From IMG/VR virus record IMGVR_UViG_648276671_000006, positions 1-6,300 of that record: 6,300 nt of DNA. One strand, given 5' to 3'. Origin of the DNA: a virus. Its lineage: Duplodnaviria; Heunggongvirae; Uroviricota; Caudoviricetes. Below, in pieces: positions 931-5,943 of the stretch; position 1 is the first letter of the stretch, and every line of letters starts with the position of its first letter. The notes below the pieces were generated by a model. That model searched no databases. It saw only the letters and a program-made list of their open reading frames with translations, and was not told the DNA's origin. The position numbers were made by a program, and so were the translations under genes.

Positions 931-957
931 GCAATAAAAAACCCGCCGAAGCGGGTT
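931..957 (-). terminator. rho-independent terminator of the hok transcript
   Basis: On the minus strand: AACCCGC-UUCG-GCGGGUU (plus 940..957) followed by UUUUAUUGC. GC-rich 7-bp stem with a UUCG tetraloop and U-run. Confidence 0.7.
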
Positions 958-960
958 AAG

Positions 961-1018
961 TGCGGGTGCGTTGAGGATGCCTGACACATCAGAGGTGGCG
1001 AGGGATTTCTCCCTCGCC
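961..1018 (-). promoter_or_regulatory. hok mRNA 3' elements: fbi-like box (961..976) and a perfect 9-bp hairpin (997..1018)
   Basis: The transcript here reads CCUCAACGCACCCGCA, complementary with one bulged C to the predicted 5' end UGCGGGUGCUUGAGG (1330..1316). GGCGAGGGA/UCCCUCGCC hairpin with a 4-nt loop sits just 3' of the hok stop. Confidence 0.5.
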
Positions 1019-1025
1019 TGGTCTC

Positions 1026-1181
1026 TTACTCCTCAGGTTCGTAAGCTGTGAAGACAGCGACCTCCGTCTGGCCGGTTCGGATTCGTACCTCGCAGAGGTC
1101 TTTCCTCGTTACCAGTGCCGTCACTATGACGGTTAAACAGATGACGATCAGGGCGATTAACATCGCCTTTTGCTGCTTCAT
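1026..1181 (-). CDS. hok: Hok/Gef-family type I toxin (51 aa, MKQQKAMLIALIVICLTVIVTALVTRKDLCEVRIRTGQTEVAVFTAYEPEE)
   Basis: Single hydrophobic transmembrane segment followed by the conserved RKxLCE.R...GxxEVAAF-like tail of Hok/Gef peptides. From memory it is closest to chromosomal HokD/RelF. ATG at 1181..1179 with AAGGAG 9 nt upstream. The 70-aa track ORF 1026..1238 is an in-frame N-terminal extension. Confidence 0.85.
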   Translation of the reverse strand: MKQQKAMLIALIVICLTVIVTALVTRKDLCEVRIRTGQTEVAVFTAYEPEE

Positions 1182-1227
1182 AGCCTGCTTCTCCTTGACC
1201 TTTCGGTCCGTAAGAGGCAATCTATAT

Positions 1228-1290
1228 GTGACGAGCATATAGGGGCCTCACTTCGATTTATAGTCGGGTGGGGCTTTTCTCTATCTGCCT
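1228..1290 (+). ncRNA. expected position of a Sok-like antisense RNA (approximate, not firmly located)
   Basis: By analogy with hok/sok loci, the antisense RNA should cover the leader-ORF SD (plus 1246..1251) and ATG (1236..1238). Plus-strand signals are weak: TTGACC (1195..1200), 17 nt, CAATCT; possible 3' stem 1245..1251/1268..1274 followed by TTTTCTCT. It may be degenerate. Confidence 0.2.
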
Positions 1291-1315
1291 TTGGTGGCAT
1301 GCCCGAGACAGATAG

Positions 1316-1361
1316 CCTCAAGCACCCGCAGCAATTCTACTTAACTCTCCTTTTCCCGCAA
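1316..1361 (-). promoter_or_regulatory. hok promoter and 5' tac-like box
   Basis: On the minus strand: TTGCGG (1361..1356), 16 nt, TAGAAT (1339..1334). Predicted start near 1328, giving a transcript of about 390 nt whose first 15 nt are complementary to 976..961. Confidence 0.45.
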
Positions 1362-3434: not shown

Positions 3435-4263
3435 GGCTCCCCCCCTTGCTGACTGGTTTAACCTGCGCCCTGACGTGATTTACGTGACGGGCAAATTTCT
3501 GCTCCCACTGAACCTGCGTGAAAACTTTTCCCTCCTCTGCCCAGTAATCCCGGAAGGCGGCAAGTTCAGCAGGTGTAAATTCCGGCTCCGGCAAAGCCAC
3601 TCCCCACAGTGCAGCCCGCCGTCGAAAATCCGGCGACGGATACCAGTCATCGGTCATCGGAAATTTTCCGATGCGTTCGCTCAGGCCATCCAGGAATGCA
3701 GGGGGCGTTGCCTGTGACGGCAAAACTTCCCTCTCACTGGTCGGAGCACTCTCGCGTGCGTTATGTATGGGGTTTAGATCTTTAGGTTCCTTTGGGTTCC
3801 GTGATCCGTTTTTGGGTGTCTTTGATGGAAAATTTGGGTGCCTTTGGTTATTTTCTATGCTGCAAAGAGTCCCGTTTTTGGGTCTGTTTTGTGCGGAAAC
3901 ACAACCGTTTTTGGTGCTGTTTTTATTAACAGTACCAATTTTACCCACCTTTAAAGACTCCCGTTTTTGGGTGTATTCAGGCTCGGCAACACTTTCTTCA
4001 ACACCGATAAGTTGGTACACCACAATTTGCTTTGTTCGACCTTTTCTCTCACCGGTATCAACAATTAACCCAATCTCCATCAGGTGCCGTAAGCTGTCCT
4101 GCACAGTTTTTTTGTTCAGTTCCGTTACTTCTGCCAGTGCAGATACAGACGGGTATGCACACAAATCGGCACCGCACATATCAGCAAGCCAGGTCAATAC
4201 TGACTTACTGGATGAACTGCCGGTTTTCACCCTTTTAGCCCATCGTAGTGCATCGATACTCAT
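3223..4263 (-). CDS. O-like replication initiator: N-terminal HTH domain, PKNG-repeat linker, DnaT-like C-terminal domain
   Basis: Track ORF 3223..4338 starts at TTG. The ATG at 4263..4261 has GAGG 5 nt upstream ([15 protein letters not shown]...). N-terminal region resembles phage replication-initiator HTH domains; [48 protein letters not shown] resembles the DnaT C-terminal domain. Iteron-like repeats lie inside the linker-coding segment. Confidence 0.8.
3783..3976. repeat. iteron-like direct repeats (CCGTTTTTGGGTG family), putative replication origin inside the initiator gene
   Basis: Near-identical copies at 3806..3818, 3872..3884, 3905..3916 and 3961..3973, plus degenerate TTTGGGT(T/G)CC copies at 3791..3800 and 3833..3842. 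An AT-rich stretch lies at 3917..3958. On the coding strand the repeats translate to recurring PKNG. Confidence 0.55.
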
Positions 4264-4786
4264 GCGAACCTCGACCAGGTATCTGTTGACCCGCAAAGCA
4301 ATGTTGGTATTGCTGACGATATGCACGTTTGAAAGCAATAGCTTTTTCTATAAGCTCGTCAGCCTCACGCTCCACAACAGTTGGATCTGCAAAAAGCAGC
4401 CCGGACTCCACCACATCACCATACTCTTTGTTTAACCCGGCGATCATGTACGTAATGCTTTTTCCGTCAGTAATTTCACAATACAACCTGAAATCACTGA
4501 TCCGGATAGCCTCCATAATTGCCGGAATCAGCGCCGTGAATTTTTCACGCTTATCCCTGGTGTCGATAGCTTTCCAGCGTTCAAATATCTTCACCCTGTT
4601 AACGCCAAGCGCCCGCTGATCAACCACGCCATCATCAAATGTGACACGTTGAACATCGATGTTCGGGCGCTCTTTCAGAGCCCAGAAGGCTTCTGTGATT
4701 AATATCGTCGCCTGCTCCTGCGTCATTCCCGGGCTGCATACCCAGGAGTCCAGAGCCTCACGAGCCTGCTCAGGAGTGAATATCAT
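4235..4786 (-). CDS. YdaT-like protein, positional equivalent of lambda CII (183 aa)
   Basis: Sits between the Cro-like gene and the initiator, as cII does in lambda. ATG at 4786..4784 overlaps the Cro-like stop by 17 nt. Assignment to the YdaT family is from memory of prophage YdaS/YdaT pairs, not from a search. Confidence 0.7.
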
Positions 4787-5063
4787 TGTTCACCGCCAGT
4801 GATTCATTTGTCATACACTTATTCCCACAAGGCAGCCCATCGGTTAGATTGGGGTAAATATCTGGGCGAAGCTCGTGGGGGGTGACTTGCCATTCAAGGA
4901 GCACACAAAGAGGAATGACCCGCTCAGCTGGTATTGATTTATTGGCAAACCATTTTCCAACCCCTTGCCCACTAATCCCAAAGCGTTCTCCAATCTCGAC
5001 AAAGGAAAAGTTTTTTTTAATCTTGTCTCGTAGATCGTTTAGTTTTTGATGTTTTTTAGCCAC
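4770..5063 (-). CDS. Cro/YdaS-like HTH regulator (97 aa from the GTG start)
   Basis: HTH FVEIGERFGISGQGVGKWFANKSIPAERV and an ELRPD motif as in YdaS-type Cro proteins. Track ORF 4770..5162 would leave only 11 nt to the divergent repressor. GTG at 5063..5061 has a near-consensus SD GAGGTGAGG (5078..5070). ATG at 5087 is an alternative, possibly leaderless. Confidence 0.7.
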   Translation of the reverse strand: MAKKHQKLNDLRDKIKKNFSFVEIGERFGISGQGVGKWFANKSIPAERVIPLCVLLEWQVTPHELRPDIYPNLTDGLPCGNKCMTNESLAVNNDIHS

Positions 5064-5173
5064 ACAACACCTCACCTCTTGGTTCATCACTGGGAGCATA
5101 ACAGGCGAAAGTTTACGTTTCAAGAACAAGGAAACAAATAGTTGTACTGATAATCGAAACATTTGGTTGTAAA
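5064..5173. promoter_or_regulatory. divergent promoter/operator region of the immunity switch
   Basis: Three operator-like sites about 25 bp apart: GAAAGTTTACGTTTC (5107..5121, palindromic GAAA-N7-TTTC), GAAACAAATAGTTGTAC (5131..5147) and GAAACATTTGGTTGTAA (5156..5172). Leftward promoter TTGAAA (5123..5118), 17 nt, TATGCT (5100..5095). Rightward promoter CTGATA (5147..5152), 17 nt, TAAAAT (5170..5175). Confidence 0.55.
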
Positions 5174-5599
5174 ATGCAGGCTATGAACGATACCGTTAAC
5201 AATGTTTTTGCAAAAAGAATCCAGCAAGTGATGGATGAAAATGGCTGGAATAAGTCAGACCTGGCTAAGCGGGTCATGTTATCTCACACCGCGGTTCAGA
5301 ATTGGGCAAAAGGCATCAGCGTAGCCAGCGGTGTAAGATTAAAAAGGCTCGCAGCTGTAACAGGAAAGCCTGAGTACTGGTTTTTTATGGATCGGGATGC
5401 AGGAGGCGATGAAAATCACCAAGATATACCAATACCCATTGTGCTTGATGACAAAGAGAAAGCCCTGCTCTCAATTTTCAATCAAATGCCAGAAGCAGAA
5501 AAGTTACGCCTAATTATCCATGCTAAGGAAGTCCTGAGAGAGCTGGAACTGCTTAAGAGCGATGTTTTCGATATTATCAACGATCAATTAAAACCATAG
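5174..5599 (+). CDS. DicA-like HTH (XRE-family) prophage repressor, 141 aa
   Basis: N-terminal HTH SDLAKRVMLSHTAVQNWAKG; the C-terminal segment LDDKEKALLSIFNQMPEAEKLRLIIHAKEV resembles the DicA C-terminal region. No peptidase S24 (LexA-like) domain. Divergent from the Cro-like gene. The start may instead be the ATG at 5183, because the -10 TAAAAT overlaps the first ATG. Confidence 0.85.
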   Translation: MQAMNDTVNNVFAKRIQQVMDENGWNKSDLAKRVMLSHTAVQNWAKGISVASGVRLKRLAAVTGKPEYWFFMDRDAGGDENHQDIPIPIVLDDKEKALLSIFNQMPEAEKLRLIIHAKEVLRELELLKSDVFDIINDQLKP

Positions 5600-5624: not shown

Positions 5625-5652
5625 AAAAAGCACCTTTCTGGTGCTTTTTTTT
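5625..5652 (+). terminator. rho-independent terminator after the repressor gene
   Basis: AAAAAGCACC-TTTCT-GGTGCTTTTT: perfect 10-bp stem, 5-nt loop, then a T-run to 5652. The A-run before the stem makes it potentially bidirectional. Confidence 0.7.
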
Positions 5653-5661
5653 GCCCAGAAA

Positions 5662-5712
5662 CGAAATTTTCTATTTCGCACACTTTACACGCGAAAGTTA
5701 TTGTTGCACAAT
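5662..5712 (+). promoter_or_regulatory. second operator-bearing promoter (PL-like) for the rightward ydfA-like operon
   Basis: GAAATTTTCTATTTC (5663..5677) is a second GAAA-N7-TTTC palindrome. GAAAGTTATTGTTGCAC (5693..5709) matches 12 of 17 positions of the 5131..5147 site. Candidate promoter TTTACA (5684..5689), 17 nt, CACAAT (5707..5712). Confidence 0.35.
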
Positions 5713-5790
5713 CCACACCATCAACAACGAAACGCATCGTTGTCAGGCTAAAGTTCCGCTACCCCGGCGTTAAGGGGAAATGAGGTCAAC

Positions 5791-5943
5791 ATGGATACTA
5801 TCGATCTTGGCAACAACGAATCTCTGGTGTACGGCGTGTTTCCCAACCAGGACGGCACGTTCACCGCGATGACGTATACCAAAAGCAAAACATTTAAAAC
5901 CGAAGCTGGCGCGCGTCGCTGGTTAGCCAGAAACACTGACTGA
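5791..5943 (+). CDS. YdfA-like small protein (50 aa, MDTIDLGNNESLVYGVFPNQDGTFTAMTYTKSKTFKTEAGARRWLARNTD)
   Basis: Below the ORF-track length cutoff. ATG at 5791 with GAGG 5 nt upstream; stop TGA at 5941..5943. Its position immediately downstream of a DicA-like repressor matches the dicA-ydfA arrangement of the Qin prophage. Sequence identity to YdfA is from uncertain memory. Confidence 0.6.
   Translation: MDTIDLGNNESLVYGVFPNQDGTFTAMTYTKSKTFKTEAGARRWLARNTD

Follow-up and report, generated by a model that had tools for sequence, protein, structure and literature searches.

A candidate left operator and promoter past the repressor gene of a Gifsy/Qin/Rac-kind lambdoid prophage

In phage lambda, the repressor gene is followed by a terminator and then by operators of the OR family, which lie over a promoter that reads away into the early-left operon with its recombination and host-killing functions. 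Does the prophage analysed here carry an equivalent, that is, a second promoter held by its own repressor? An earlier note had read positions 5662–5712 of the window (the whole 6,300-nt stretch of DNA under analysis) in this way, and our computational follow-up supports that reading by the presence of the sites, their scores and frequencies against chance, their conservation in relatives and the way they covary with the repressor in 18 types. We conclude that 5662–5712 very probably serves a lambdoid prophage of the Gifsy/Qin/Rac kind as left operator and promoter, the counterpart of lambda OL/PL and Qin dicBp; repressor binding, its cooperativity, the resulting repression and the start of transcription are inferred.

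The window spans the immunity and replication genes of such a prophage. The repressor gene lies at 5174–5599 on the forward strand, and a Cro-like gene of the YdaS family (4770–5063, reverse strand; Pfam YdaS_toxin, 3.6e-09; PHROG 35, transcriptional repressor) reads away from it, followed leftward by a YdaT-like gene and genes for a DnaT-domain replication protein and a lambda-P-like protein. On the other side, a ydfA-like gene (DUF1391; 5791–5943, forward strand; Pfam DUF1391, 3.6e-29) is the first gene of the downstream operon. Its counterparts in E. coli genomes carry the ydfA/DUF1391 annotation, and in relatives the ydfA-led operon continues to ydfB/ydfC, dicB and recE. The contig ends with the window, 700 nt past the repressor gene, and any dicF and dicB genes would fall beyond it. 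The exact repressor protein is rare, being recorded in two contigs only (GL884357.1 of NCBI assembly GCA_000176655.2 and one Logan assembly), and this immunity module had no match above ~68% DNA identity in E. coli complete genomes or the deposited phage collection, with its nearest counterparts in Salmonella Gifsy-1 and Gifsy-2 and in a few E. coli prophages from chickens and humans. The prophage may be cryptic. Far to the left, the window also holds a hok/sok toxin–antitoxin locus (1026–1327, reverse strand), with an Rfam sok match at 1179–1327 (108 bits against a gathering score of 59) and a 70-aa ORF (1026–1238, reverse strand) that matches a gene named HOK_GEF in locus L085. Adjoining it is a sub-threshold isrK-like match (936–1017, reverse strand; 31 bits against a gathering score of 50) with a terminator-like hairpin at its end.

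The repressor and its divergent promoters

The repressor is 141 aa long (138 aa from M4). HTH_3 is its only Pfam domain, HTH_26 and HTH_8 overlapping it more weakly and falling short of their cut-offs. A peptidase domain is absent. A length of ~135–150 aa, an N-terminal HTH and the lack of an S24 peptidase or autocleavage domain characterize the non-cleavable repressors of the Gifsy type (GogR/GtgR, GfoR and GfhR), and all three features were found here. Over its full length, aligned from residue M4, the protein is 64% identical to the Gifsy-1 LT2 repressor STM2628 of the Gifsy-1/2 pair (E = 2e-65), which is identical to GtgR (PMC3121763), and sequence comparison places it in the Gifsy GogR/GtgR family. 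Induction does not cleave repressors of this family; small antirepressors, whose genes lie in the prophage but outside the immunity region, inactivate them instead (PMC3121763). The missing peptidase domain and the missing LexA box near either promoter are consistent with control of that kind. A perfect LexA-box core (CTGT-N8-ACAG) occurs once in the window, at 3917–3932 within the replication-protein ORF, and is probably a chance match (four matches against two expected when one mismatch is allowed). With no perfect core near 5650–5790, we rejected LexA control of the downstream promoter.

The earlier note had likened the arrangement to Qin, in which DicA represses the downstream dicB operon. 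That comparison holds for the layout and for the published precedent (PMC10448788) but does not extend to the repressor itself, which is 31% identical to DicA over 108 aa. The DicA Oc site TTGTTAGTCATAACTAACAA had no match in the window at up to three mismatches. A DicA orthologue acting on Oc-type sites (TTGTTAG-N6-CTAACAA) was rejected on both counts.

Three copies of a 15-bp dyad lie between the Cro-like and repressor genes. OR-a (GAAAGTTTACGTTTC, 5107–5121) covers the −35 and spacer of the leftward promoter (TTGAAA-17-TATGCT, reading from 5123 to 5095), OR-b (GAAACAAATAGTTGT, 5131–5145) lies immediately upstream of the −35 of the repressor's own promoter, and OR-c (GAAACATTTGGTTGT, 5156–5170) sits inside the spacer of that rightward promoter (CTGATA-17-TAAAAT, 5147–5175). 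When 17 unique relatives were aligned, GAAAGTT..GTTTC of OR-a was invariant and all three sites showed a conservation footprint like the one found downstream. The −10 of the repressor promoter (TAAAAT, 5170–5175) is part of TTGTAAAATG, a sequence kept in nearly all repressor types of the same layout and missing from K-12 dicA, and it overlaps the first ATG of the gene at 5174. The coding sequences of the relatives and of Gifsy-1 begin at the ATG equivalent to 5183, only 7–8 nt past the −10 and without a ribosome-binding site. ATG 5183 (M4) is probably the true start of the repressor and its mRNA is probably leaderless, which would parallel the leaderless lambda cI message transcribed from PRM.

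Sites and promoter past the repressor terminator

The repressor transcript appears to end at an intrinsic terminator at 5625–5652 (forward strand), recognized as an inverted repeat that folds, AAAAAGCACC-tttct-GGTGCTTTTT followed by a T run. The hairpin at 5625–5649, ahead of T8, has a predicted energy of −14.7 kcal/mol (z = −4.2), and the T run is kept in relatives. The earlier note had placed operator copies between this terminator and the ydfA-like gene, overlapping a promoter, and the coordinates bear this out. A promoter scan returned a rightward promoter resembling PL and dicBp at 5684–5712, TTTACA-17-CACAAT, with its −35 at 5684–5689 and its −10 at 5707–5712. The −10 is a poor hexamer, with 9 of 12 consensus positions matched overall. 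CTTTACA is invariant in 20 unique relatives, and the relatives have an xAxxxT hexamer at the same spacing from it. The predicted order of the module is that of an OL/PL region, with the repressor gene, the terminator, the promoter reading away and ydfA all on the forward strand, and two copies of the OR-region motif lie at the promoter.

The first of these copies, OL1 (GAAAGTTATTGTTGC, 15 bp, 5693–5707), occupies the 17-nt spacer and reaches the first base of the −10. It is closest to OR-a, including its 5' flank (ACAsGCGAAAGTT), with 77% identity over 22 nt to 5101–5122. The second copy, OL2 (CGAAATTTTCTATTTCG, 5662–5678), is a perfect 5+7+5 dyad (CGAAA-N7-TTTCG) that ends 6 nt short of the −35. 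OL1 and OL2 are spaced 30 bp centre to centre, a distance of 29–34 bp in most relatives. Both sites had been noticed before, with one difference of detail. The second GAAA-N7-TTTC palindrome is indeed present at 5663–5677, the other copy being the one at 5107–5121 in the divergent promoter region. For the close copy of GAAAC...GTTG, a site does lie within the span (5693–5706), but it reads GAAAG...GTTG, while the literal GAAAC...GTTG occurs at 5729–5742, outside the span.

Neither motif is expected at this frequency. GAAA-N7-TTTC occurs exactly twice in the 6,300-nt window against 0.27 expected (two or more copies in 9 of 200 shuffles), and five copies of GAAA-N6-GTTG are present where 0.38 would be expected (0 of 200 shuffles), four being at 5131, 5156, 5693 and 5729. 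We scanned the whole window, on both strands, with a weight matrix trained only on its three upstream sites, and used a second one derived from 16 related loci and their upstream sites, leaving the window out. Beyond the training sites, OL1 (5691–5709) was the top match, with 19.5 bits on the first matrix and 19.9 on the second, followed by 5727–5745 with 13.3 bits on both; the background maximum was 9.5 bits on the first matrix. Among 191-nt Markov sequences of intergenic composition, ~0.05% reached 19.5 bits and 0.4–0.6% reached 13.3 bits. OL2 scored only ~2 bits on the first matrix, due to its right half, which reads ATTTC where the upstream sites have GTTkc, and fell outside the top 12 on the second. 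We regard OL2 as a putative variant site supported by its exact dyad and its conservation and not by the matrices; it may be weak or serve another role.

Conservation is most evident from the positions of the dyad. In 47 related 5-kb loci (including some second copies), an exact GAAA-N7-TTTC dyad was found at the same two places, ~55–75 nt before the repressor gene and ~70–85 nt past its stop, and 42 of the 47 had no other copy. When 20 unique downstream regions belonging to the operator group of the window were aligned, the fully invariant columns covered, from left to right, the greater part of the terminator T run, the GAAA and the TTT of OL2, CTTTACA, GAAA..TT...GTTG.A at OL1 and blocks of the leader, with variable sequence between them.

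Based on these features, we propose that the repressor, presumably as a dimer, recognizes 15-bp dyads of the form GAAAn-N5-nTTkn, three upstream of its gene and two past its terminator. Repressor bound at OL1 would exclude RNA polymerase by filling the spacer between TTTACA and CACAAT, and OL2, 30 bp upstream and just before the −35, would probably add cooperative binding. With the sites occupied, the early-left operon that begins with ydfA would stay silent in the lysogen, and the Cro-like protein probably binds the same sites. In related systems, the Gifsy repressors are dimers (Lemire et al.), GtgR, itself a dimer, shifts a fragment of the Gifsy-2 right operator (PMC3121763), and DicC gives ChIP-seq peaks on both sides of dicA (PMC11430063). 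Repression of such a promoter by its own repressor has its precedents in DicA (PMC10448788) and in the left operon of Gifsy (PMC3121763).

Covariation with repressor type and competing readings

We compared 80 IMG/VR loci encoding relatives of the repressor (55–76% identity), plus Gifsy-1, K-12 Qin and two prophages from E. coli. At a clustering threshold of 85% identity, the repressors formed 19 types, 18 of them with the usual layout, and their operator motifs fell into about six groups: GAAAn-N5-nTTkn (the group of the window), rAAC-N7-GTTcc (Gifsy-1/2), TGAAAA-N5-TTTTCA, ACAAG-N5-7-CTTGT, a TGAAAG type and TTGTTAG-N6-CTAACAA (DicA). In all 18 types, the stretch from the repressor stop to the −10 contained two copies of the upstream motif of that same locus, one in the promoter spacer and one ~30 bp upstream. 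To quantify this agreement, we scored each upstream region against downstream regions by adding up the two best 15-mer matches that do not overlap (of a maximum of 30). The mean score was 24.9 for the downstream region of the same locus and likewise 24.9 for other loci of the same operator group, compared to 22.1 for loci of a different group and 21.2 for the locus's own downstream region after shuffling. Within-group scores exceeded between-group scores (Mann–Whitney p = 9e-33; permutation p ≤ 1e-5), but these p-values overstate independence because the loci are phylogenetically related, and the real replicates are the ~6 groups and not the 18 loci. The agreement between upstream and downstream motifs was seen in all six groups. 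Relative to the start of the leader, the best matches began at around −24 to −28, in the 17-nt spacer, and at −52 to −60, just upstream of the −35. The predicted downstream sites change together with the repressor type and with the upstream sites of their own locus.

Sequence identity breaks close to the promoter. Comparing the window with six loci, we found the stop-to-−10 segment to be 0.52–0.76 identical and the repressor gene 0.54–0.74. The leader and ydfA are 0.88–0.94 identical to those of heteroimmune E. coli loci, whose operator segment is only 0.52–0.62 identical, but just 0.59–0.64 identical to those of the loci with the most similar repressors. Because the operator segment diverges in step with the repressor while the leader and ydfA have another history, we assign the operators to the immunity module. 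By megablast, similarity to the ydfA regions of thousands of E. coli sequences begins abruptly at about position 5753, which together with the identity break points to a mosaic junction directly past the −10 (in the region 5713–5753), as expected if the operators of a promoter must travel with their repressor. On this comparison, repressor, operators and promoter form one exchangeable module and the leader with ydfA another.

The leader is the presumptive 5' end of the early-left operon transcript, ~75 nt at 5717–5790 (forward strand), and is conserved across heteroimmune loci. It comprises a 5'-terminal hairpin (5724–5730 with 5737–5743), an invariant GTTCCGC, a second hairpin (CCCC at 5762–5765 with GGGG at 5774–5777) and a GAGG ribosome-binding site, and it is common to all six operator groups even before different first genes. 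A covariance model of the leader found one copy per locus in 24 of the 24 loci that gave a match, at 49–92 bits (K-12 at 49 bits), with no second copy on the PR side within ±2.5 kb; a two-copy element of the put type was rejected on this basis. No leader was detected in the two segments of HK022 searched (positions 22000–31600 of a record in which putL is unannotated), and an Rfam search of the leader and the dyad at E ≤ 1 returned nothing credible, the lone overlap being SpF10 at 26 bits against a gathering score of 60. RNAalifold kept hairpin 1 of this putative RNA structure with little covariation (double changes in two of nine predicted pairs, in one and two sequences). It is quite unlikely, in our estimate, that the leader acts in cis as an RNA element, either a 5' stabilizer or a factor-independent antitermination or processing signal that would replace the missing N/nut. 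One IMG/VR relative (L083, ~1008–2031) has tandem repressor genes, with a second HTH repressor-like ORF placed after the first and ahead of the conserved leader.

How many of the downstream matches are operators depends in part on this leader, since a third operator-like match, GAAACGCATCGTTGT at 5729–5743, lies within its hairpin 1. Read as a functional OL3, it would form a roadblock at about +10 to +25 of the transcript and complete a three-site layout as in lambda and Qin. The literature does give three operator sequences at dicBp (PMC10448788), and its 13.3 bits on both OR-trained matrices, reached by the 0.4–0.6% of Markov sequences noted above, are on par with the 12.7 bits of OR-b. We nonetheless consider an OL3 unlikely. 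Of 47 unique leaders, 45 have an identical right half of the match, CGTTGTCA, regardless of immunity type, and the left half differs: it is CGTAGC in L004 and L005, the closest relatives of the same operator type, and CGAACC in heteroimmune E. coli loci. The GAAAC variant is found in no other IMG/VR contig, and a search there with a degenerate pattern returned only the GAACC and GTAGC variants. Moreover, the 15-mer straddles the 7-bp hairpin, beginning in the 5' arm and ending where the 3' arm ends. The match is probably no operator and for the most part a by-product of the conserved leader, although a single base change may have turned hairpin 1 into a third repressor site in this window.

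Doubts of two other kinds concern the promoter-proximal sites. The dyad at 5662–5678 might not bind repressor at all, being instead a terminator-associated RNA or DNA hairpin or an A+T-rich UP-like element, with OL1 as the sole operator. Its weak matrix scores, its position 10 nt past the terminator T run and its potential 6-bp hairpin (−4.0 kcal/mol, z = −4.4) fit such a role, which we consider very unlikely given that the same exact dyad recurs as the PR-proximal OR-a, where there is no terminator. Across the 20 unique relatives, its arms are invariant and its centre variable with no compensatory changes, and heteroimmune groups carry their own motifs at this place (for example TAGAACTATTGGTTCC, AACAACATTTTCTTGT and ATGTTAGCTATAGCATACAA) and not a GAAA/TTTC hairpin. 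Finally, the similarity between the upstream and downstream regions could be due to chance or to a decaying remnant of a cryptic prophage that has no regulatory role, as the rarity of the exact repressor (two contigs) and the poor −10 might suggest. This is highly improbable: conservation and covariation of the sites extend over dozens of loci, the inducible Gifsy phages among them, and the repressor, Cro-like, replication and ydfA genes of the window are all intact. A left operator with two sites, OL1 and OL2, over a repressed promoter remains the reading that we favour.

Known prophages of the same design

The dicA–dicC and dicA–dicBp intergenic regions of Qin contain operator sequences like lambda OR and OL, dicBp lies upstream of ydfA, and deletion of dicA induces a dicBp-lacZ fusion 22-fold (PMC10448788). 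K-12 Qin (dicC-dicA-dicBp-ydfABC-dicF-dicB) has the same order as the window, with a Cro-like gene, a divergent repressor gene, a promoter and ydfA. Two site copies are found at the same positions, ATGTTAGTCATGGCTAATCT in the spacer of TTGACC-17-TAATCT and ATGTTAGCTATAGCATACAA upstream of it, the promoter reading TTGACC-gatATGTTAGTCATGGC-TAATCT in full. The leader and ydfA of K-12 are 88% identical to those of the window, compared to 52% for the stop-to-−10 segment, and the operator sequence is unrelated. Gifsy-1 and Gifsy-2 (LT2) are 67% identical to the window in DNA across the repressor gene and its flanks and share its layout, including three upstream and two downstream sites, one of which lies in the spacer of TTTACA-17-TATCGT, and the same leader hairpin. 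Their half-sites read rAAC..GTTcc, whereas those of the window read GAAAn..nTTkn, a difference that probably makes the prophage of the window and Gifsy-1/2 heteroimmune. In Gifsy-1, the first gene of the left operon is a 38-aa ORF and not ydfA.

The predicted module follows the same regulatory logic as lambda OL/PL, an analogy also drawn for Qin (PMC10448788), with differences in detail. Lambda has three left sites at ~24-bp spacing, compared to two clear sites 30 bp apart here, and its repressor has a cleavable C-terminal domain, which the repressor of the window does not. No lambda N gene or nutL is recognizable in the window, and a different conserved leader takes the place of nutL.

Taken as sequence, the locus combines a known architecture with a new, uncharacterized immunity specificity, and the understanding of lambdoid regulation is unchanged. 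What it adds is a predicted regulatory map, with five operator sites, three promoters and a terminator, for an uncharacterized immunity type within a family of prophages that is very common in enterobacteria. Together with the predicted recognition sequence GAAAn-N5-nTTkn, the map would be useful for predicting heteroimmunity and which prophage repressor silences which toxic operon of the dicB/dicF type.
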